Shown here piece by piece: positions 5,158 to 31,452 of a stretch of DNA of 31,834 nucleotides. The DNA comes from a virus. Taxonomy: Duplodnaviria > Heunggongvirae > Uroviricota > Caudoviricetes > Peduoviridae. Numbering within the stretch: position 1 is the first letter of the stretch; the number at the start of each line of letters is the position of its first letter. Made by a program: the position numbers and the translations under genes. The stretch is taken from positions 1 to 31,834 of the IMG/VR virus record IMGVR_UViG_2974619728_000001, one strand, 5' to 3'. The notes under the pieces were generated by a model that had not been told where the DNA came from, made no database searches, and worked only from the letters and a program-made list of their open reading frames with translations.

Positions 5158-5895
5158 ATGACGAGTCCCGCACAGCGCCACATGATGCGGGTCTCGGCAG
5201 CGATGACCGCGCAGCGGGAAGCCGCCCCGCTGCGACATGCAACTGTCTATGAGCAGATGCTGGTCAAGCTGGCCGCAGACCAGCGCACACTGAAAGCGAT
5301 TTACTCAAAAGAGCTTAAGGCCGCGAAAAAACGCGAACTGCTGCCGTTCTGGTTGCCGTGGGTGAACGGCGTGCTGGAGCAGGGCAAAGGCGCACAGGAT
5401 GACATTCTGATGACAGTCATGCTGTGGCGTCTGGATACCGGCGATATTGCCGGTGCGCTGGAGATTGCCCGTTATGCCCTGAAGTACGGTCTGACCATGC
5501 CGGGGAAACACCGCCGCACTCCGCCGTACATGTTCACCGAGGAGGTGGCGCTCGCGGCCATGCGTGCCCACGCTGCCGGTGAGTCTGTGGATACCCGCCT
5601 GCTGACGGACACCCTCGAACTGACCGCCACGGCTGACATGCCTGATGAAGTGCGCGCAAAGCTGCACAAAATCACCGGTCTGTTTCTGCGTGACGCTGGT
5701 GATGCCGCCGGTGCGCTGGCGCACCTGCAACGTGCGACACAGCTCGACTGTCAGGCAGGCGTCAAAAAAGAGATTGAACGACTGGAGCGGGAGCTGAAAC
5801 CGAAGCCGGAGCCAAAAGCGGTCACCCGCGCCCCGCGTAAGACCCGGAGCGTGACACCGGCAAAACGTGGACGCCCGAAAAAGAAAACCAGTTAA
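5158..5895 (+). CDS. M: terminase small (endonuclease) subunit, P2 gpM-like, 245 aa
   Basis: ORF starts 4 nt after N stop; basic C-terminal tail; matches P2 gpM. Confidence 0.88.
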   Translation: MTSPAQRHMMRVSAAMTAQREAAPLRHATVYEQMLVKLAADQRTLKAIYSKELKAAKKRELLPFWLPWVNGVLEQGKGAQDDILMTVMLWRLDTGDIAGALEIARYALKYGLTMPGKHRRTPPYMFTEEVALAAMRAHAAGESVDTRLLTDTLELTATADMPDEVRAKLHKITGLFLRDAGDAAGALAHLQRATQLDCQAGVKKEIERLERELKPKPEPKAVTRAPRKTRSVTPAKRGRPKKKTS

Positions 5896-9368: not shown

Positions 9369-10120
9369 GACGGGTGTTTATGGATGAAAAGTTTTCTATT
9401 TTGAGAAAAAGAGTAAAGCACTCTCAAAAGAAAGTTATGGATTGTATTATTGCTGACCATAATGCTGATATATGTGTGTTATGCGGGAGTTCTGACGATA
9501 TTACTCGTGAGCACATTATTCCTCAGTGGGCCTTTGAGTCAAATGCTGAAAAATCTTTAATTAATAAAAAGAATAATCAGTCAACTCATTACATTAAAGC
9601 CACTGTACCAGCATGCAGAGTGTGCAATTCTGATTTGCTGGGAGTGTTTGAGTATAACCTGAAGAAATTTCTTACGGAAAAGAGGGGAGAGGAGTTAACA
9701 GATTATGAGTATGATTGCATCATATGGTGGTTGCAATACATGGGTTTTAAGTTGCAATTAATGGATTTGCGGAACCGCTTTCTCAGGTATAAAGGTGGTG
9801 ATTATATCCCGTTCCTTGCAAACTTCCCGGTTGCAATGTTTTGGGGGAATGTCGATACGACGCCGGGGGATGTCTTCAGGATTATACGAAAATCGCGACG
9901 CAATCTGATGTCGAAATGGAAGGATAAAAAACATAATTCTTTGATGGTTTTTGAAACATCAAACAAGAGTTTTCATTTCTTTCATAAGGTTGATGAATTT
10001 ATTTTTATTGAAATGCCTCAGGTTAAGAAGGCGTTTTTCTTCTTTTTTAATAAAGAATTTGACAGCCATGATTTAGCTCATGAGGGGTGTATGAAGATTA
10101 TAGAGAAGTGCTACAACTAA
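9365..10120 (+). CDS. AT-rich accessory ORF encoding HNH-type zinc-finger nuclease-like protein, 251 aa, at the position of P2 orf30
   Basis: Residues 37-88 read CVLC...REHIIP...N...H...CRVCN, a CxxC/H/N/CxxC HNH pattern; sequence markedly AT-rich against GC-richer flanks; ATG overlaps S stop. Confidence 0.65.
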   Translation: MRRVFMDEKFSILRKRVKHSQKKVMDCIIADHNADICVLCGSSDDITREHIIPQWAFESNAEKSLINKKNNQSTHYIKATVPACRVCNSDLLGVFEYNLKKFLTEKRGEELTDYEYDCIIWWLQYMGFKLQLMDLRNRFLRYKGGDYIPFLANFPVAMFWGNVDTTPGDVFRIIRKSRRNLMSKWKDKKHNSLMVFETSNKSFHFFHKVDEFIFIEMPQVKKAFFFFFNKEFDSHDLAHEGCMKIIEKCYN

Positions 10121-12623: not shown

Positions 12624-14633
12624 ATGAGCACAAAATTCAGAACCGTTATCACCACTGCCGGTGCAGCAAAGCTGGCAGCGGCAACCGCACCGGGAGGGCG
12701 GAAGGTCAACATTACCACGATGGCCGTCGGGGATGGCGGTGGTAAATTGCCTGTCCCGGATGCCGGACAGACCGGGCTTATCCACGAAGTCTGGCGACAT
12801 GCGCTGAACAAAATCAGTCAGGACAAACGAAACAGTAATTATATTATCGCAGAGCTGGTTATTCCGCCGGAGGTGGGCGGTTTCTGGATGCGAGAGCTTG
12901 GCCTGTACGATGATGCGGGAACGTTAATTGCCGTGGCGAACATGGCCGAAAGTTATAAGCCAGCTCTTGCCGAAGGCTCAGGGCGTTCGCAGACCTGCCG
13001 CATGGTCATCATCGTCAGCACTGTGGCCTCAGTGGAGCTGACCATTGACACCACAACGGTGATGGCAACGCAGGATTACGTTGATGACAAAATTGCAGAG
13101 CACGAACAGTCACGACGTCACCCGGACGCCTCACTGACCGCAAAAGGTTTTACTCAGCTAAGCAGCGCGACCAACAGCACGTCTGAAACACTGGCCGCAA
13201 CGCCGAAAGCGGTTAAGGCCGCATATGACCTTGCTAACGGGAAATATACCGCACAGGACGCTACCACAGCGCGAAAAGGTCTTGTCCAGCTAAGTAGTGC
13301 GACCAACAGCATGTCTGAAACGCTCGCCGCAACACCAAAAGCCGTTAAGACGGTAATGGATGAAACGAACAAGAAAGCGCCATTAAACAGCCCTGCACTG
13401 ACCGGAACGCCAACGACGCCAACTGCGCGACAGGGAACGAATAATACTCAGATCGCAAACACGGCTTTCGTTATGGCCGCGATTGCCGCCCTTGTAGACT
13501 CGTCGCCTGACGCACTGAATACGCTGAACGAGCTGGCGGCGGCGCTGGGCAATGACCCGAATTTTGCTACCACCATGACTAATGCGCTTGCGGGTAAGCA
13601 ACCGAAAGATGCCACTTTGACGGCGCTGGCGGGGCTTGCTACTGCGGCAGACAGGTTTCCGTATTTTACGGGGAATGATGTTGCCAGCCTGGCGACCCTG
13701 ACAAAAGTCGGGCGGGATATTCTGGCTAAATCGACCGTTGCCGCCGTTATCGAATATCTCGGTTTACAGGAAACGGTAAACCGAGCCGGGAACGCCGTGC
13801 AAAAAAATGGCGATACCTTGTCCGGTGGACTTACTTTTGAAAACGACTCAATCCTTGCCTGGATTCGAAATACTGACTGGGCGAAGATTGGATTTAAAAA
13901 TGATGCCGATGGTGACACTGATTCATACATGTGGTTTGAAACGGGGGATAACGGCAATGAATATTTCAAATGGAGAAGCCGCCAGAGTACCACAACAAAA
14001 GACCTGATGACGTTGAAATGGGATGCACTAAATATTCTTGTTAATGCCGTCATTAATGGCTGTTTTGGAGTTGGTACGACGAATGCACTAGGTGGTAGCT
14101 CTATTGTTCTTGGTGATAATGATACCGGATTTAAACAGAATGGAGACGGTATTCTTGATGTTTATGCTAACAGTCAGCGTGTATTCCGTTTTCAGAATGG
14201 AGTGGCTATTGCTTTTAAAAATATTCAGGCAGGGGATAGTAAAAAGTTCTCGCTATCCAGCTCTAACACATCCACGAAGAATATTACCTTTAATTTATGG
14301 GGTGCTTCCACCCGTCCAGTGGTTGCAGAATTAGGCGATGAGGCCGGATGGCATTTCTATAGCCAGCGAAATACAGATAACTCGGTAATATTTGCTGTTA
14401 ACGGTCAGATGCAACCCCGCAACTGGGGAAATTTTGATTCCCGCTATGTGAAAGATGTTCGCCTGGGTACGCGAGTTGTTCAATTGATGGCGCGAGGTGA
14501 TCGTTATGAAAAAGCCGGACACACGATTACCGGATTAAGAATCATTGGTGAAGTAGATGGCGATGATGAAGCCATCTTCAGGCCGATACAAAAGTACATC
14601 AATGGCACATGGTATAACGTTGCGCAGGTGTAA
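12624..14633 (+). CDS. H: tail fiber protein, P2 gpH-like, 669 aa
   Basis: MSTKFRTVITTAGAAKLAAATAPG... conserved N-terminus; internal repeats; lower-GC C-terminal region typical of receptor-binding domains. Confidence 0.9.
   Translation: MSTKFRTVITTAGAAKLAAATAPGGRKVNITTMAVGDGGGKLPVPDAGQTGLIHEVWRHALNKISQDKRNSNYIIAELVIPPEVGGFWMRELGLYDDAGTLIAVANMAESYKPALAEGSGRSQTCRMVIIVSTVASVELTIDTTTVMATQDYVDDKIAEHEQSRRHPDASLTAKGFTQLSSATNSTSETLAATPKAVKAAYDLANGKYTAQDATTARKGLVQLSSATNSMSETLAATPKAVKTVMDETNKKAPLNSPALTGTPTTPTARQGTNNTQIANTAFVMAAIAALVDSSPDALNTLNELAAALGNDPNFATTMTNALAGKQPKDATLTALAGLATAADRFPYFTGNDVASLATLTKVGRDILAKSTVAAVIEYLGLQETVNRAGNAVQKNGDTLSGGLTFENDSILAWIRNTDWAKIGFKNDADGDTDSYMWFETGDNGNEYFKWRSRQSTTTKDLMTLKWDALNILVNAVINGCFGVGTTNALGGSSIVLGDNDTGFKQNGDGILDVYANSQRVFRFQNGVAIAFKNIQAGDSKKFSLSSSNTSTKNITFNLWGASTRPVVAELGDEAGWHFYSQRNTDNSVIFAVNGQMQPRNWGNFDSRYVKDVRLGTRVVQLMARGDRYEKAGHTITGLRIIGEVDGDDEAIFRPIQKYINGTWYNVAQV
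13155..13352 (+). repeat. imperfect ~63-bp direct repeat pair inside gene H (protein repeat QLSSATNS(T/M)SETLAATPKAVK)
   Basis: DNA near 13155-13217 and 13290-13352 is near-identical; the two protein copies are visible in the H translation and mirrored in the antisense ORF 13154-13372. Confidence 0.8.
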
Positions 14634-14636
14634 GTT

Positions 14637-15164
14637 ATGCAGCATTTAAAGAACATTAAGTCAGGTAATCCAAAAACAAAAGAGCAATATCAGCTAACAA
14701 AGAATTTTGATGTTATCTGGTTATGGTCCGAAGACGGAAAAAACTGGTATGAGGAAGTGAAGAACTTTCAGCCAGACACAATAAAGATTGTTTACGATGA
14801 AAATAATATTATTGTCGCTATCACCAGAGATGCTTCAACGCTTAATCCTGAAGGTTTTAGCGTTGTTGAGGTTCCTGATATTACTGCCAACCGGCGTGCT
14901 GATGACTCAGGTAAATGGATGTTTAAGGATGGTGCAGTGATTAAGCGGATTTATACGGCAGACGAACAGCAGCAACTGGCAGAATCACAAAAGGCAACTT
15001 TGCTTTCCGAAGCCGAATCCGTGATTTTGCCACTGGAGCGCGCTGTCAGGCTGAATATGGCAACAGATGAGGAGCGCAGTCGACTGGAGGCATGGGAACG
15101 CTACAGCGTTCTGGTCAGTCGTGTGGATCCTGCAAATCCTGAATGGCCGGAAATGCCGCAATAA
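14637..15164 (+). CDS. G: tail fiber assembly chaperone, P2 gpG-like, 175 aa
   Basis: Full ORF directly after H; matches P2 gpG. Confidence 0.88.
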
Positions 15165-15198
15165 GTTGTATGAACTCTGGTGTGAGCTTACATATCTA

Positions 15199-15240
15199 TG
15201 GCACAGAGTAAAGCCTAATCTGGCAGTCCGCTCTGTGCCA
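15199..15240. other. perfect 10-bp inverted repeat (TGGCACAGAG...CTCTGTGCCA) with 22-nt loop in the G-distal intergenic region
   Basis: Seen directly; no flanking T tract, so not a classic terminator. Confidence 0.6.
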
Positions 15241-15357
15241 TTACCGGACATACTGAGCAGAAGGCTAAAAAGGACGCTTTCAGGACATATAGCAAGGGAG
15301 CAAGGATGAAAGAATTAACCCAGTATATTTAATGTTTCAATCATGATAGTTTCTGAA

Positions 15358-15384
15358 TTAAAGGGGGCTATCCACCCCCTTTAA
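15358..15384. terminator. hairpin TTAAAGGGGG-CTATCCA-CCCCCTTTAA between convergent G and the minus-strand accessory genes (likely bidirectional terminator)
   Basis: 10-bp perfect stem and 7-nt loop, immediately 3' of the minus-strand ORF stop (15385-15387) and followed by T-rich sequence on the plus strand. Confidence 0.6.
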
Positions 15385-15663
15385 TTACTTGTTCCACTCA
15401 GTCAGAATTTGGTTACTAACTTCATCTGAGAGATTGTACCAATAAGCTGAGTTATTGGTTGCGTCTACAACAATAAGCTTATCATCACTATCCATGACCG
15501 CCCTCACAATTTTGGCTGCATCCTCGGCAGAGTAACTACAGTTAACATACCAGTTCGATTCAGTTGTTAAAGCCCAATTTCCTAAAGATTTAATTGCATC
15601 ATACACAGCCGCATAATCTTTCGTTTTAATGAGGTCGTAAGTAATAAATAAATTATTAGCCAT
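15385..15663 (-). CDS. AT-rich accessory ORF, hypothetical protein, 92 aa
   Basis: ORF with GGAG about 9 nt upstream of ATG on the minus strand; alternating predicted beta/alpha segments; no recognisable catalytic motif. Confidence 0.55.
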   Translation of the reverse strand: MANNLFITYDLIKTKDYAAVYDAIKSLGNWALTTESNWYVNCSYSAEDAAKIVRAVMDSDDKLIVVDATNNSAYWYNLSDEVSNQILTEWNK

Positions 15664-15680
15664 AAATCATCTCCCAAAGG

Positions 15681-15709
15681 ACAAAGAAAAAAGCGCCTAG
15701 AAAGGCGCT
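15681..15709 (-). terminator. small hairpin (AGCGCC-TAGAAA-GGCGCT) with following U-rich tract on the minus strand, between the two minus-strand accessory ORFs
   Basis: Seen directly; 6-bp stem, then T5CTTTGT in minus-strand sense. Confidence 0.4.
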
Positions 15710-15715
15710 CATATA

Positions 15716-15934
15716 TTAATGGTCTTTAAGCCATGCCTGTACTTTCTTAGCCGAATGACCTACAGCCTGTACGGCTTGAACAAGTTTGGCCTCGCTAACT
15801 CCAAACTTTTCAGCCCAATCACGTCTCTCGTAATCCTGTTTGATACTTATTAAATCATTGTCAGGGGTACCGATTTTGGTCTTATCATCAGCCATTTTAC
15901 TGATTCCTCGTGATACAGGCTTATACCTGCCCAT
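15716..15934 (-). CDS. small accessory protein resembling the DUF3606 family, 72 aa (or 59 aa if started at internal Met, 15895)
   Basis: C-terminal segment ...RRDWAEKFGVSEAKLVQAVQAVGHSAKKVQAWL fits the DUF3606 pattern as I recall it; two alternative ATGs each with a GGAG-like element. Confidence 0.5.
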   Translation of the reverse strand: MGRYKPVSRGISKMADDKTKIGTPDNDLISIKQDYERRDWAEKFGVSEAKLVQAVQAVGHSAKKVQAWLKDH

Positions 15935-16386
15935 TAGTTATATGGCTCCCGTGCTGCTTCGTAAACGTTCAATAATCAAACAATTGACACTGATCATAAA
16001 ACCAGTTGGAGGATTTGACTCTAGCTTGGATATATGATGATGCCACCCTCTTTATATTGTTGTCGGTAACTCACAGACATTGAACTCATGCTGGTGAGTG
16101 AAAGGCTACATAAACGCCCAACATTTAAACTGCCCTCAGCAGCGTTTGCGGAGCAATATACAGGCTTCGTATTCAATCCTTGCCCTACGAGAAACCCTAG
16201 CCGTTGCCTCGTTTTCAAGTGTCAGGAAGTTCTTTGTCAGACCTCATACAGTCTTGGGCTGGGTGAGGTGCATGGGGGAAGTAGAAGCCTTAACTGTTGA
16301 GGTAAATCGAACCATAAGTGTGCAATTTTTCAAGCCCGGCGCTATTTTAGTATTGAAAACAATTAGTACGCCCCCAAGGACAACTC

Positions 16387-17079
16387 ATGATCGAATTTAT
16401 CGCAGAGCATATAAACACAGTAAGTACACTTATCTCCGCTTTGGCAGCATTGCTAACAGCAGTTGCTACATTTTTCTTGTGGAGAGTAACAAGGCTATTA
16501 GCAGACGAGACAAAAAGGATGGTTGACGCATCAGTTCAACCTCATGTCGTTGTGACTCTTGAACCAAATTCTTGGGCTGCTTTTTATTTTGATATCAATA
16601 TTGCTAATACCGGAAATGCCCCAGCCTATGATATTGAAGTCGGATTTAATCCCCCACTGGTTAATGCAGAACATAGAAAAAATAAAGGTATACCATTTAG
16701 CAAGGTTAGCGTATTGAAAAACGGCCATTCCCTCAACAGCAGTCTTTGTAAGTATGACCAGATTAAAGATCAAGTTTATTCTGTTAGTATTAGCTGGTCT
16801 AAACAGCCGGGCTCAACTGAAAGAGAGCGGAATGAGTATTCTTATGATATGGCTTCTTTCGAGGGGGTTAGCTACTTAGGTGCAAGGAGTCCAATGACAC
16901 AGATAGCTGAGCAGATGAAAAAGATTAGAGAAGACTGGAGGCCGATTTCCCAGGGAAGCAAAAAAATTAGAACAGACAACTATAATTCAAGTGACAGAGC
17001 AGAGGAACAACGAGCACGTGAAGAGTGGTATCAGACCACTGTAAAGAAATGGGATAAAGAAAGGCAAAAAGATAACTAA
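16387..17079 (+). CDS. AT-rich accessory membrane-anchored protein, 230 aa, unknown function (Z/fun position)
   Basis: AAGGA 6 nt upstream of ATG; one N-terminal hydrophobic helix (about residues 11-33, TLISALAALLTAVATFFLW); strongly charged C-terminal tail. Confidence 0.65.
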   Translation: MIEFIAEHINTVSTLISALAALLTAVATFFLWRVTRLLADETKRMVDASVQPHVVVTLEPNSWAAFYFDINIANTGNAPAYDIEVGFNPPLVNAEHRKNKGIPFSKVSVLKNGHSLNSSLCKYDQIKDQVYSVSISWSKQPGSTERERNEYSYDMASFEGVSYLGARSPMTQIAEQMKKIREDWRPISQGSKKIRTDNYNSSDRAEEQRAREEWYQTTVKKWDKERQKDN

Positions 17080-17215
17080 TACAATTGACCTGCTCCCCAT
17101 AAATTAGCATACCACAATCTCAGGTTCCTCTTCGCTCAAAACAGGCAGTCAGATTTGATAGCGTTTTGGCTATGTAAATTGTCAGTCGGAAAATGAGTGT
17201 GTACAAATCAGGACA

Positions 17216-17245
17216 GGCGGGCAGATTGCCCGCCTTTTCTTTATC
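17216..17245 (+). terminator. rho-independent terminator after the accessory membrane-protein gene
   Basis: GGCGGGCA-GAT-TGCCCGCC perfect 8-bp stem followed by TTTTCTTTATC. Confidence 0.7.
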
Positions 17246-17338
17246 TGTTGTTTCATCCACTGACCAGCCAGGTCAAATAGCGTCTCATGTACTACCCAAC
17301 GGAAAATAGTTGCACCCATTAACCACGGAGTTAAACGG
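17246..17338 (+). promoter_or_regulatory. candidate late promoter region (P_F) for FI-FII-E-T-U-D
   Basis: Position between terminator and FI start, with GGAG RBS at 17327-17330; inferred from P2 organisation, motif not verified. Confidence 0.4.
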
Positions 17339-18529
17339 ATGAGTGACTATCATCACGGCGTGCAGGTACTGGAGATTAACGACGGCACCCGCGTCATTTC
17401 CACCGTATCCACAGCCATTGTCGGCATGGTCTGCACGGCCAGCGATGCGGATGCGGAAACCTTCCCCATCAATAAACCGGTGCTGATTACCAATGTGCAG
17501 AACGCAATTGCAAAGGCTGGTAAAAAAGGCACGCTGGCGGCATCGTTGCAGGCCATCGCCGACCAGTCAAAACCGATCACCGTTGTCGTGCGTGTGGAAG
17601 ACGGCACCGGCGACGACGAGGAAACGAAACTCGCGCAGACCGTTTCCAATATCATCGGCACCACCGACGAAAACGGTCAGTACACAGGACTGAAAGCCCT
17701 GCTGGCGGCGGAGTCGGTAACCGGTGTTAAACCGCGTATTCTCGGCGTGCCGGGACTGGACACCAAAGAGGTGGCTGTTGCACTGGCATCAGTCTGTCAG
17801 AAGCTGCGCGCTTTCGGGTATATCAGCGCATGGGGCTGTAAAACCATTTCCGAGGTGAAAGCCTACCGTCAGAATTTCAGCCAGCGTGAGCTGATGGTCA
17901 TCTGGCCGGATTTCCTCGCATGGGATACGGTTGCCAGTACCACCGCCACCGCGTATGCCACCGCCCGTGCGCTGGGTCTGCGTGCCAGAATCGACCAGGA
18001 GCAGGGCTGGCATAAAACGCTGTCCAACGTCGGGGTGAACGGTGTTACCGGCATCAGCGCATCTGTATTCTGGGATTTGCAGGAGTCCGGCACCGATGCT
18101 GACCTGCTGAATGAGTCAGGCGTCACAACGCTGATTCGCCGTGACGGTTTCCGCTTCTGGGGTAACCGTACCTGCTCTGATGACCCGCTGTTCCTCTTTG
18201 AAAACTACACCCGCACCGCGCAGGTGCTGGCCGACACGATGGCTGAGGCGCACATGTGGGCGGTGGACAAGCCCATCACCGCAACGCTGATTCGCGACAT
18301 CGTTGACGGCATCAATGCCAAATTCCGTGAGCTGAAAACAAACGGCTATATCGTGGATGCGACCTGCTGGTTCAGCGAAGAATCCAACGATGCGGAAACC
18401 CTCAAGGCCGGAAAACTGTATATCGACTACGACTATACCCCGGTGCCTCCTCTCGAAAACCTGACCCTGCGCCAGCGTATTACCGATAAATACCTGGCAA
18501 ATCTGGTCACTTCGGTTAACAGCAATTAA
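17339..18529 (+). CDS. FI: tail sheath protein, P2 gpFI-like, 396 aa
   Basis: Full ORF; size and position match the contractile-tail sheath. Confidence 0.92.
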   Translation: MSDYHHGVQVLEINDGTRVISTVSTAIVGMVCTASDADAETFPINKPVLITNVQNAIAKAGKKGTLAASLQAIADQSKPITVVVRVEDGTGDDEETKLAQTVSNIIGTTDENGQYTGLKALLAAESVTGVKPRILGVPGLDTKEVAVALASVCQKLRAFGYISAWGCKTISEVKAYRQNFSQRELMVIWPDFLAWDTVASTTATAYATARALGLRARIDQEQGWHKTLSNVGVNGVTGISASVFWDLQESGTDADLLNESGVTTLIRRDGFRFWGNRTCSDDPLFLFENYTRTAQVLADTMAEAHMWAVDKPITATLIRDIVDGINAKFRELKTNGYIVDATCWFSEESNDAETLKAGKLYIDYDYTPVPPLENLTLRQRITDKYLANLVTSVNSN

Positions 18530-30172: not shown

Positions 30173-30370
30173 ATGAGCAAAAAGGTTATCACGATACAAG
30201 TAAGAGGTGGGCACGCAGGTGCTAAGCCTGTTCGTCGTTCAAAACTTGAACAAAGTGTTAATCGTTCCCTGCGTGCTTCGTTTTCTCTGGAAGGTAATCA
30301 CATTACCAACACTTCATGGTCTAAAATGTCGCAGGCTGCACGTTTTCTGACCAGAGTAGCTGTTGCTTAA
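30173..30370 (+). CDS. small DinI-like protein (P2 orf91 position), about 65 aa
   Basis: MSKKVITIQVRGGHAGA...SFSLEGNHI resembles the DinI family (xxVTI...AGA...F..EGH); start chosen at internal Met; 3' end overlaps the convergent Fic gene by 4 nt. Confidence 0.55.
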   Translation: MSKKVITIQVRGGHAGAKPVRRSKLEQSVNRSLRASFSLEGNHITNTSWSKMSQAARFLTRVAVA

Positions 30371-31452
30371 AGCTCTTTGATTGCCCTTGAAATAAGGGCA
30401 ATCAGATTTCTGTTACTGTCGTGTATTGCGCGTCTTACAGCATAATGGTACGCACGTTTATTTTGCACATCTCCATCTAGCTTTTCCATATCAAATTCAT
30501 AACCCATAGTAGTTGCAACAATCTGAAGAAATAATCGTATTGAACGACCATTACCATCTTGAAAGGGGTGGATCCATGCGATTTCTGCATGGAGAGTAGC
30601 TAGTTTATGAACTAACTCTGCTTTAGAATTTATTTTGCTAAGTTCTTTTTTTGTGCAACCTCTAAGACAGGCTTTTAATGATTTTTTGACTTCATTATGT
30701 TCCATTGTTGGTCGCTCTTTATCTCCAACAACAACGGGATGGTTTCTGTATTCACCTGCCCAATCATAAATATGGCCAAAAAGAGCTTTATGGCATTCTA
30801 AGATCGTCTTTTCATTAATTGTTTTATTTTTGTCGGAGACATAATTTATTATGAGCTGCGTACTTTTGATATATGAAATAACCATTTCGGCAAATTCAAC
30901 TTGGTATTGGTATTTTGCAAATACTAGATTTTTTGTTGCCATGTATTCATATCTTTCATTTTTTCCGTCACGTAAAAGAAAAATGTTGTCTTTTTGGTGC
31001 TTTACTTTGATTACATGATTGCGTTGAAATGGAAAGTTTTTGTCGTGAGGCAATATGTGAAAATAAGTTTCTTTTTTTAGCTTGTCTACACCAACAATTG
31101 AACCAAAAAGAAAAAGGGCTGCTGTTGTATTAAATAAAACACATACGGAGTCGCCAAGTTGTATCTCTTCGCGACTTAGATCGCATGTTTTTTTCTTATA
31201 ATTAAATAAATGGGCGATAGATGGTATGCTGTGATGATTGCGCAATGAACCTGAGCCACATATGACTTCTTTTGTCCTGCTATTCCAGTAATAATTAATG
31301 CTTCTCTTATTCTCTTGTGTTCTTTTTATATGAACCAACTTGAAGCTAAGTAGACTTAAAGAGAATTCACCATTCTTTTTGACTATATTAACTTTTTGGT
31401 GTTTCATTTTGTTTTTTGTTAGTGTTATTGAAAAATGTTTTGAAGGTATCAT
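30367..31452 (-). CDS. AT-rich accessory Fic/Doc-domain protein, 361 aa, at the tin/old position
   Basis: Canonical Fic motif HPFQDGNGRSIR (residues 295-306, about 30535-30570) preceded by ...ILECHKALFGHIYDWAGEYR; ~200-aa N-terminal region with no motif I recognise. Confidence 0.75.
   Translation of the reverse strand: MIPSKHFSITLTKNKMKHQKVNIVKKNGEFSLSLLSFKLVHIKRTQENKRSINYYWNSRTKEVICGSGSLRNHHSIPSIAHLFNYKKKTCDLSREEIQLGDSVCVLFNTTAALFLFGSIVGVDKLKKETYFHILPHDKNFPFQRNHVIKVKHQKDNIFLLRDGKNERYEYMATKNLVFAKYQYQVEFAEMVISYIKSTQLIINYVSDKNKTINEKTILECHKALFGHIYDWAGEYRNHPVVVGDKERPTMEHNEVKKSLKACLRGCTKKELSKINSKAELVHKLATLHAEIAWIHPFQDGNGRSIRLFLQIVATTMGYEFDMEKLDGDVQNKRAYHYAVRRAIHDSNRNLIALISRAIKEL

Follow-up and report, generated by a model that had tools for sequence, protein, structure and literature searches.

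A low-GC cassette at the Z/fun site of a P2-like phage: a mosaic of two separable transcription units encoding DUF3606, Cas2-like and DUF8453 proteins

Cargo at the Z/fun site

The Z/fun site, between the tail-fibre assembly gene G and the sheath gene FI, is a known cargo and defence site of P2-like phages (PMC13586616; bioRxiv 10.1101/2024.10.15.618418), and a preliminary description of the locus analysed here had rightly placed its accessory genes at this hotspot. In P2, the position is held by the T5-exclusion gene fun(Z), which encodes one protein of 528 residues on the minus strand. Phage R18C (31,834 nt, 51.6% GC), isolated as a lytic phage, carries two short ORFs from 15,385 that were presented as fun(Z)-site morons of unknown function (Svab et al. 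2019, PMC6823313). A further Z-region allele, that of 'P2-EC53', has been deposited as AJ512682, where a 230-aa ORF is the only one annotated, under the name 'ORF1, putative lysogenic conversion protein'.

The DNA analysed here, referred to as the window, is the whole stretch of 31,834 nt, whose length, GC and coordinates match the published description of R18C. Its cassette is the P2-EC53 allele, 99.6% identical to AJ512682 over all 2174 nt; relative to the window, AJ512682 lacks six single bases, all of them within 15705-15906, and these deletions break the DUF3606 frame. Thus, the cluster is not newly seen: the P2-EC53 Z-region record already contained it, and its two small ORFs had been described for R18C, in a paper that gives these two ORFs only and calls the remainder non-coding (PMC6823313). 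Neither the AJ512682 record nor the R18C paper assigns folds, origin or function. The locus is now resolved into a stand-alone Cas2-fold protein, its conserved small upstream partner, and a membrane-tethered Ig-like protein that is probably cytoplasmic. Because the window matches R18C, a phage isolated as lytic, the cassette is at least not required for lysogeny.

The cassette shares with fun(Z) the G-FI position, the flanking backbone and the status of non-essential cargo, and the preliminary description had left room for its being the P2 allele itself. However, alignment to P2 covers the flanks and not the interior DNA, and Fun(Z) bears no significant similarity to any ORF or frame of the locus (best E 0.026 over 26 aa by blastp and tblastn). 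Instead of one large protein, the cassette encodes three small to medium-sized proteins in two units, unrelated to Fun(Z) in sequence. Identity with the fun(Z) allele is thereby refuted, with a vanishingly small residual probability.

Layout of the locus

Three ORFs lie between G and FI exactly where the preliminary description had put them, and on the strands it gave (Table 1). The cassette itself spans approximately 1.9 kb, from about 15245 to 17130, and is low in GC, as also pointed out earlier (0.41, compared with 0.516 in the whole window and 0.565 in FI). Gene G and distal H are likewise poor in GC. The proposed foreign content of the cluster agrees with this low GC, with the terminator-like hairpins at its bounds, and with its absence from most relatives; other P2-like phages match just 13% of the G-FI interval, corresponding to the flanks. 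Foreign base composition, absence from close relatives and a place between conserved genes are among the features by which morons are recognized, and the cassette exhibits these three.

Table 1. Positions of the features of the G-FI interval and its flanking genes in the window
Feature	Position	Strand	Remarks
Tail-fibre assembly gene G (Caudo_TAP)	14637-15164		Left flank
P2-backbone spacer 3' of G, with conserved hairpin	15165-15244	+	Aligns with P2 to about 15245
Hairpin, stem ATGGCACAGAG / CTCTGTGCCAT	15198-15241		-24.6 kcal/mol, z -4.9
Integrase-gene fossil (3' end, DUF6538-type tyrosine integrase)	15219-15335	+	tblastn
Bidirectional terminator-like hairpin, perfect 12-bp stem	15356-15386		-17.0 and -19.1 kcal/mol (two strands), z about -4
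92-aa ORF	15385-15663	-	
Intrinsic-terminator-like hairpin and T-run between DUF3606 and 92-aa genes	15691-15710	-	-13.3 kcal/mol, z -3.8
DUF3606 ORF, 72 aa	15716-15934	-	RefSeq start M14 = 15895, giving 59 aa
Conserved upstream region of leftward unit	15935-16006	-	From alignment; island homology ends there
Non-coding spacer between both modules	16007-16248		No Rfam match
Leader and probable promoter region travelling with DUF8453 gene	16249-16386	+	Homology to solitary Kosakonia copy (L013) begins at 16249
DUF8453 ORF, 230 aa	16387-17079	+	
Conserved P2 backbone ahead of FI: terminator hairpin and T-run, then PF late promoter	17130-17338	+	
Terminator hairpin and T-run	17215-17235		-20.5 kcal/mol, z -4.7
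Sheath gene FI	17339-18529		Right flank

The hairpins reported in the preliminary description are real and far more stable than shuffled sequences. To these a fourth strong hairpin can be added, in the left 'non-coding' stretch (15198-15241), which corresponds to the 'left inverted repeat' of AJ512682. The 'left' and 'right' inverted repeats of that record were also considered as mutual reverse complements, a relationship that is rejected, as their alignment scores no better than shuffles; each is conserved backbone with a hairpin of its own. The bidirectional hairpin next to the 92-aa gene would be in a position to end both late transcription of V-J-I-H-G and leftward transcription of the small genes, and its counterpart in the source islands lies between the 92-aa gene and a convergent integrase gene. 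On the right side, the cluster had been regarded as insulated by a terminator at 17216-17245. This hairpin exists, but it is part of the P2 backbone, which is conserved from about 17130 rightward and lies outside the cassette. It is followed at about 17243-17315 by the Ogr-dependent PF late promoter, located by homology to P2 and its annotated activator site and transcription start.

Upstream of the leftward unit, a candidate promoter picked by eye consists of a weak -35/-10 pair (TTTACG, 17 nt, TATAAC) within the conserved region, which also holds an inverted repeat, ACTGGT-N6-A(T/C)CAGT, at 15989-16006; it is at this repeat that the homology to islands stops. The -10 signal annotated in AJ512682 at about 16050 is unsupported beyond the depositors' guess. 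Morons are further marked by a promoter and terminator of their own, allowing expression from the prophage. Of these, the cassette has terminator-like hairpins; since a scan for the sigma-70 consensus found no promoter, its expression from the prophage is an assumption of ours. A search of Rfam over 15100-17400, with E values up to 1, gave chance-level matches only, and the 452-nt spacer between the divergent genes matches no known RNA family.

The leftward unit: a DUF3606 protein and a Cas2-like protein

The resemblance of the 72-aa ORF to DUF3606, noted from the start, is borne out by its match to Pfam PF12244, which passes the threshold (65.3 bits against a gathering cut-off of 24.3; E 4.3e-18; profile positions 1-54 of 54), and in PHROGs the protein corresponds to phrog_10779. 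The gene downstream encodes a 92-aa protein (phrog_1090) confidently assigned to a Cas2/VapD-like ferredoxin fold, with the β-α-β-β-α-β order and the conserved Asp closing strand 1 that characterize Cas2. Residues Y9, D10, S36, D58 and D61 are invariant, and the putative catalytic Asp is kept. At the level of sequence profiles, CRISPR_Cas2 from Pfam does not match the window's protein, and Cas2_II from PADLOC does so below threshold (E 0.019). Across the family, 14 of the 31 members match Cas2d, the best E over the Cas2 profiles being 6.8e-5, and one distant relative weakly matches PF09827. The gene has no cas1 or CRISPR array nearby, and no cas gene was found in the interval or in any of the contexts examined.

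The small gene upstream of the members of this family is not constant, being DUF3606 in some cases and an unrelated 41-aa protein in others, while further members have no small gene at this place. A type II/V toxin-antitoxin pair (VapXD-like or GhoST-like) would consist of two adjacent, co-transcribed small genes, a toxic and a neutralizing one, that always occur together; here, the upstream partners vary, and a terminator-like hairpin separates both genes. This hairpin (15691-15710) is a candidate attenuator that would limit the expression of the 92-aa protein, and islands with a different small upstream gene hold an equivalent GC hairpin with a T-run at the same place.

Both proteins also differ in their evolution, as the 92-aa protein changes much faster than the DUF3606 protein upstream of it. 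Between cassette and island, it retains 76% amino acid identity, versus 97% over 59 aa for the DUF3606 protein (93% over the 72-aa ORF), which shows a dN/dS of 0.03 against the island copy. An effector that evolves faster than its small upstream partner reverses the usual toxin-antitoxin pattern, and this is one of the arguments for considering the leftward unit an anti-defence module. According to this explanation, the acidic Cas2-fold protein (13 D/E versus 7 K/R) would be a decoy, poisoning for example spacer acquisition by Cas1-Cas2 or some other nuclease complex of the host. DUF3606 would regulate it as a small conserved protein, much as Aca proteins regulate anti-CRISPR genes, and DUF8453 would be cargo unrelated to the module. 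Among Cas2 structures, the 92-aa protein best matches Cas2 of the E. coli type I-E system in complex with Cas1 (5dlj, 4qdl), which points in the same direction, as does its carriage, at an element edge, by phages and by integrative islands with a major-capsid-protein homologue. Nevertheless, an anti-defence function is judged quite improbable.

The rightward unit: a membrane-anchored DUF8453 protein

The rightward gene owes its name to the RefSeq annotation of WP_001572865, which is 99.6% identical to the window's 230-aa protein. The single N-terminal anchor and the charged C-terminus attributed to this protein are both present, as one hydrophobic N-terminal helix and as 16 K/R and 13 D/E within residues 155-230. 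The membrane helix extends as a stalk (residues 2-49) and is followed by an Ig-like β-sandwich (54-154) and by charged C-terminal helices (169-229), the juxtamembrane helix being the best conserved region. There are no K/R residues before the membrane helix and four just after it; therefore, an N-out/C-in topology is predicted, in which the Ig-like domain and the charged tail would be cytoplasmic. PHROGs places DUF8453 in a family of unknown function. Its nearest viral structural neighbours are uncharacterised proteins with an apparently similar build of membrane helix and Ig-like domain, one of which is named 'transmembrane protein'.

DUF8453 homologues are spread across alpha-, beta- and gamma-proteobacteria. 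A survey of 72 species, covering the nearest ORFs of at least 80 aa and the small ORFs within 700 nt, revealed no recurrent partner. Scattered matches to methyltransferases and ATPases each account for at most 2 of the 138 neighbours, and linkage to an integrase is restricted to 3 of the 72 loci. The immediate neighbours are mostly housekeeping or miscellaneous genes, with housekeeping contexts in several alpha-proteobacteria; some copies are found in core-like surroundings, such as between ribBA and rodA, and others on DNA resembling conjugative elements, beside a ParB-N protein. Neighbour clusters that do recur around DUF8453 represent one mobile element shared by several genera.

Mosaic origin, spread and selection

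Comparison with related loci shows the anatomy and the origin of the cassette, which is a horizontally acquired, low-GC mosaic of two separable transcription units. The pair formed by DUF3606 and the 92-aa gene occurs without DUF8453 beside DUF6538-type integrases, and DUF8453 lacks the pair in 70 of the 72 species loci, so that each is found without the other far more often than together. The 'three-gene cluster' of the preliminary description thus holds for the presence of the three ORFs, but overstates their unity.

As judged from DNA homology over 15237-16006, the leftward unit is a copy of one end, that next to the integrase, of an enterobacterial integrative island. The integrase fossil encodes residues 351-392 of 398, followed by the stop codon, and is 64% identical over 42 aa to the integrase of one such island (L003; tblastn, E 1.4e-12). 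Because this fossil remains, the DUF3606/92-aa unit and the DUF8453 gene are concluded to have been joined secondarily. Two related cassettes (L014 and L097) have an extra segment of 313 bp at about 16160, with no convincing coding potential and no Pfam match.

The assembled block has also moved as a whole. A 1.96-kb segment (15181-17138, 95.6% identity) is present in an unrelated, apparently lambdoid, prophage (L099-L103), and the block is likewise found in a divergent P2-like phage whose FI is 77% identical (L097) and in Pantoea (L014). The cassette is present in 99 (about 2%) of 5426 complete E. coli genomes. In 92 of these the identity is at least 99%, and in 93 the cassette adjoins FI; it occupies this site in 93 of the 1697 E. 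coli genomes that have a P2-type sheath gene. All three genes are under purifying selection, with dN/dS values of 0.03-0.44. The locus documents how the cargo of a classical P2-like hotspot is assembled, from an island piece with an integrase scar and a solitary membrane-protein gene, and how the composite is then passed to an apparently lambdoid prophage.

This history bears on the possibility that the cassette plays no part in phage conflict, DUF8453 being an envelope or physiology factor, with lysogenic conversion understood broadly, and the small-gene pair a hitch-hiking selfish or regulatory island remnant. The piecemeal assembly, with the fossil and the 313-bp indel in the spacer, is consistent with such a view, together with the housekeeping contexts of the alpha-proteobacterial homologues, the zero matches in the defence database of PADLOC, and the depositors' label of lysogenic conversion. 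On the other hand, purifying selection on the three genes, the conservation of the block at 99% identity or more in 92 genomes, its transfer as a whole to other phage types, and its location at a known defence hotspot argue against it, and the Pseudomonas copies adjoin nuclease and ATPase genes typical of defence islands. The absence of a conflict role is regarded as rather unlikely.

Proposed function

As anticipated, Pfam, NCBIfam, PHROGs, PADLOC and the PDB give no function for the three proteins. The suggested PADLOC search for known defence systems (PADLOC-DB v2.0.0) yielded no significant match: all hits stayed below threshold (E 0.019 and 0.027), the 230-aa protein having none. In the PDB, sequence searches using single proteins as well as a profile returned nothing significant. 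The searchable literature contained nothing relevant on P2-EC53, DUF8453, the RefSeq accessions or Cas2-like anti-CRISPRs.

The explanation proposed is that of a cargo cassette of two independent units, whose accessory genes would act in conflicts between mobile elements; it is the preferred one, with confidence a little short of even. DUF8453, needing no dedicated partner, would function as an effector of exclusion or abortive type at the inner membrane, and the Cas2-like protein as a small factor directed at nucleic acids, its dose being kept low by the upstream hairpin and perhaps also by DUF3606. A defence or exclusion role for the cassette is plausible. The analysis shows its anatomy, origin, folds, distribution and purifying selection, and we infer its expression from the prophage, the membrane topology and all that concerns function.

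The Cas2-like protein and DUF8453 may also cooperate, because relatives of both form an operon-like pair in one Pseudomonas lineage. There, in three sequence clusters, the gene of the Cas2-like relative precedes that of the DUF8453 homologue by 76-82 nt in the same orientation; one pair (L133) has SNIPE and an Mrr-type nuclease as neighbours, and another (L046) an AAA_13 ATPase. This arrangement hints at a functional link between the units, although one juxtaposition in an ancestor may account for it, and Cas2-like relatives that are more remote are unpaired with DUF8453. If the operon reflects a real partnership, the Cas2 fold would be put to a new use outside CRISPR, in conjunction with a membrane protein.

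Such a partnership could follow the logic of the type V system GhoS/GhoT, or of a sensor with a membrane effector. Control of DUF8453 would lie with the Cas2-fold protein, which might, for instance, cleave the DUF8453 mRNA or sense infection; once released, DUF8453 would damage the membrane and abort the infection, with DUF3606 as regulator of the unit. However, DUF8453 stands alone in nearly all of the species surveyed, which is hard to square with a lethal toxin in need of an antidote, and the 92-aa protein is very common without DUF8453. In addition, the genes are divergent in the window and were joined secondarily, according to the integrase fossil, and the similarity to GhoS is weak. Control of this kind is thus considered unlikely. 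The same low expectation applies to the broader proposal of an undescribed two-component abortive-infection or type-V-toxin-antitoxin-like system, where a nuclease-fold controller would gate a membrane effector, the dose in Enterobacterales would be set by DUF3606 and the attenuating hairpin, and the system would have spread on P2-like and lambdoid prophages of this order and in defence-island-like regions of Pseudomonas.

Comparison with known systems

The 92-aa protein resembles the small ferredoxin-fold nucleases of the Cas2/VapD/BPSL1038 superfamily, but it is acidic and has neither a Pfam Cas2 match nor cas1 or a CRISPR array nearby. BPSL1038 is distinguished by an active site of the form D11(X20)SST and by an additional helix at its C-terminus (PMC10491678). 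This exact motif is not reproduced in the 92-aa protein, where the spacing is D10 ... T34-E35-S36.

In GhoS/GhoT, a Cas2-fold RNase antitoxin is combined with a small membrane toxin, a short lytic peptide of about 60 aa. Unlike GhoT, DUF8453 comprises 230 aa with a folded domain that is predicted to be cytoplasmic; moreover, the genes of the cassette are divergent, and both partners are usually found apart.

Finally, HK97 gp15 and Eex of SXT/R391 are single-pass membrane exclusion proteins, carried as inner-membrane-anchored cargo by the resident element, and HK97 gp15 is a moron inside the tail-gene region. The DUF8453 cassette resembles HK97 gp15 in bringing a membrane-anchored moron into the tail-gene region, with no sequence or specific fold relation of DUF8453 to these exclusion proteins found.

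Anatomy of the G-FI interval and its relation to P2

The three ORFs that the preliminary description had placed between G and FI are exactly those present, with the DUF3606 gene starting in RefSeq at M14 (59 aa). Its three hairpins are real, with a stability far above that of shuffled sequence, and its AT-richness is borne out by a GC content of 0.41 in the cassette (the cargo insert of this interval), versus 0.516 in the window and 0.565 in FI. The 3' part of H and the whole of G (13600-15164) are likewise GC-poor (0.40-0.47). Alleles of G and H beside the same cassette are highly variable (G 38-100% identical in the related loci L085-L098), which fits the tail-fibre swapping reported for the Z/fun hotspot.

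Features of the G-FI interval in window coordinates
Feature	Position	Strand	Remarks
G (Caudo_TAP)	14637-15164		left neighbour of the interval
Hairpin	15356-15386	both	perfect 12-bp stem; -17.0 / -19.1 kcal/mol; z about -4
92-aa ORF	15385-15663	-	
Hairpin and T-run	15691-15710	-	separates the two small ORFs; -13.3 kcal/mol; z -3.8
72-aa ORF	15716-15934	-	Pfam DUF3606, E 4.3e-18
230-aa ORF	16387-17079	+	
Hairpin and T-run	17215-17235	+	-20.5 kcal/mol; z -4.7
FI (sheath)	17339-18529		right neighbour of the interval

In P2, the same interval holds a single 528-aa minus-strand gene, fun(Z), whose product is not significantly similar to any part of this locus, refuting the earlier suggestion that this could be the P2 Z/fun allele itself. 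Homology to P2 ends at about 15245, ~80 nt past the stop codon of G, and restarts at about 17130, so that the terminator at 17215, like the Ogr-dependent PF promoter, belongs to the conserved backbone; the terminator described near 17216 thus stands as a hairpin, but not as part of the cassette.

GenBank AJ512682 ('Bacteriophage P2-EC53 proviral Z-region, ORF1'), the only full-length match in the phage collection searched (which lacked MN016939), is 99.6% identical to the interval and annotates only the 230-aa ORF, as a 'putative lysogenic conversion protein'. Its six single-base deletions relative to the window, all in 15705-15906, break the DUF3606 frame. The published lytic P2-like phage R18C (GenBank MN016939) agrees with the window in length (31,834 nt), GC content (0.516) and a small-ORF coordinate (15,385) (PMC6823313); the window is therefore probably R18C itself or a genome almost identical to it. 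The R18C authors left the 230-aa gene unannotated and found no function (PMC6823313). The locus is already on record, but piecemeal and without function; new here are the dissection of the cassette and the recognition of its Cas2-like fold, of the integrase scar and of the pairing seen in Pseudomonas.

Mosaic origin and distribution of the cassette

The cluster described at the Z/fun hotspot holds up as hotspot cargo, but a single three-gene module is doubtful, its parts being separable by homology. The pair module (15237-16006) comprises the 92-aa gene, the hairpin, DUF3606 and ~70 nt of upstream sequence; it shares 79% identity with enterobacterial integrative islands at their integrase-proximal end. 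In these islands, which lack DUF8453, the pair and a DUF6538-type tyrosine integrase gene point towards each other. Positions 15219-15335 encode the last 42 residues of the island integrase (64% identity, E 1.4e-12), a fossil showing that an island of this kind was the source from which the pair was copied. The hairpin at 15356-15386 is the convergent terminator of that island. A solitary copy in Kosakonia shares 87% identity with the module of the 230-aa DUF8453 gene (16249-17085). The two modules are joined by a non-coding spacer of 240 nt with no Rfam match, in which related cassettes contain 313 additional bp at about 16160. This segment (5458-5771 in locus L014, 2307-2620 in L097), of higher GC content and with no clear ORF or Pfam match, reflects an insertion there or a deletion in the window.

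An unrelated prophage, which its DUF977 and replication-type neighbours mark as apparently lambdoid, contains the whole block (15181-17138), including ~60 nt of left P2 backbone, with 95.6% identity; the backbone stretch suggests that a P2-like phage was the donor. Pantoea has the block too, as does a divergent P2-like phage whose FI is 77% identical. The cassette core was found in 99 of 5426 complete E. coli genomes (92 at >=99% identity), and is joined to FI in 93 genomes, among 1697 with a P2-type sheath gene.

At the old/tin hotspot, the window encodes a 361-aa Fic/DOC-domain protein (30367-31452, minus strand; Pfam E 7e-17) with strong PADLOC matches (candidate family PDC-S04, E 2.6e-33; SoFic, E 1.8e-13); as a defence candidate it is better supported than the Z/fun cassette. 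An otherwise near-identical E. coli 36C_1_fosA3 prophage with the same cassette (L132 1-2494) has a TIR-domain protein there and no Fic, so the two hotspots vary independently. The third moron site, which corresponds to the position of orf30 in P2 (PMC6823313), contains a 246-aa ORF (9380-10120, plus strand) with no above-threshold Pfam match and no PADLOC match.

The Cas2-like protein and its putative control

The model of the 92-aa protein, built from a 31-sequence alignment, is of very high confidence (pLDDT 95.3) and has the topology b-a-b-b-a-b-b-a. Cas2 profiles give repeated weak family matches (Cas2d in 14/31 members; best E across profiles 6.8e-5), the catalytic position of Cas2, where strand 1 ends, is occupied by an invariant Y9-D10, S36, D58 and D61 are invariant as well, and no cas1 or CRISPR array appears in any genomic context read. 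Together, these features argue for a stand-alone protein with a predicted Cas2 fold rather than a Cas2. The protein is acidic (13 D/E vs 7 K/R).

The 92-aa gene invariably occupies the last position before the integrase in the islands, preceded by DUF3606 or an unrelated 41-aa basic protein. Both island types keep a GC hairpin and T-run ~30 nt ahead of its ribosome-binding site, suggesting that its expression depends on terminator read-through. In many enterobacterial islands (L122-L129, L104 and L106), the upstream protein is not DUF3606 but a basic one of 41-55 aa (KKVVRSAITGQFV..AKRHP.TTV.ET), followed by the same type of hairpin and T-run. These islands also encode a Phage_cap_E capsid gene, and may therefore be capsid-encoding satellites.

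The DUF8453 protein

The AF2 model (pLDDT 82) begins with a long N-terminal helix (residues 2-49), followed by an Ig-like beta-sandwich at 54-154 and, towards the C-terminus, by charged helices. As the hydrophobic stretch is preceded by no K/R and immediately followed by four, the positive-inside rule predicts a cytoplasmic folded domain. Mean column conservation is highest in the juxtamembrane helix (0.77, versus 0.63 in the sandwich and 0.40 in the tail), which suggests that this helix makes a specific contact, either with another helix or close to the membrane.

Homologues span alpha-, beta- and gamma-proteobacteria. The small-gene pair is missing at 70 of 72 species-representative loci, no recurrent family occurs among the immediate neighbours at these 72 loci, and the contexts vary from integrase-adjacent or apparently housekeeping surroundings to a mobile element shared by Bordetella, Luteimonas, Pseudomonas and others, which also encodes a ParB-N protein; the gene therefore looks self-sufficient. 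Conserved flanks are common to a set of DUF8453 loci (L020, L022-L026, L028, L031 and L061; Carnimonas, Stutzerimonas, Bordetella, an Alcaligenaceae strain, two Luteimonas species, Pseudomonas sediminis, Achromobacter and Pectobacterium betavasculorum), and those of Bordetella include a ParB-N protein of 679 aa. The shared flanks suggest that a single conjugative or integrative element with a broad host range carries the gene.

Possible functions of the cassette

The preliminary description assigned no function to the three proteins, in agreement with the absence of PADLOC matches and with their PHROGs families of 'unknown function'; no paper treating them was found in the literature searched. 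All three genes are under purifying selection (dN/dS 0.03-0.44), and a cassette without any conflict role seems unlikely. An anti-defence decoy with an Aca-like regulator is a still more improbable reading. We tentatively favour a composite cargo cassette serving inter-element conflict, in which DUF8453 would be a membrane-level exclusion or abortive-type effector and the Cas2-fold protein a dose-limited nucleic-acid-directed factor, the two possibly cooperating.

Three sequence clusters from Pseudomonas (69-100% mutually identical) encode a 90-aa protein related to the 92-aa one (27% identity; profile E 5.6e-13); its gene immediately precedes a DUF8453 homologue in the same orientation, with 76-82 nt between them. 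In one cluster the DUF8453 version is truncated to 150 aa. Their neighbourhoods include nucleases of the SNIPE/T5orf172 and Mrr types as well as an AAA_13 ATPase. Together with the E. coli cassette, this pairing makes two independent associations of two uncommon families, a hint that the units cooperate; the Pseudomonas pairing may be a single ancestral juxtaposition, and more distant Cas2-like relatives are unpaired with DUF8453. That the cassette forms a single GhoST-like or sensor-effector system is rather doubtful.

More distant phages carry the 92-aa homologue without a small upstream partner, which argues against an obligate toxin-antitoxin pair. Between cassette and island, DUF3606 retains 97% amino acid identity over 59 aa (dN/dS 0.03) and the 92-aa protein 76%, the reverse of the usual toxin-antitoxin pattern, where the antitoxin evolves faster.
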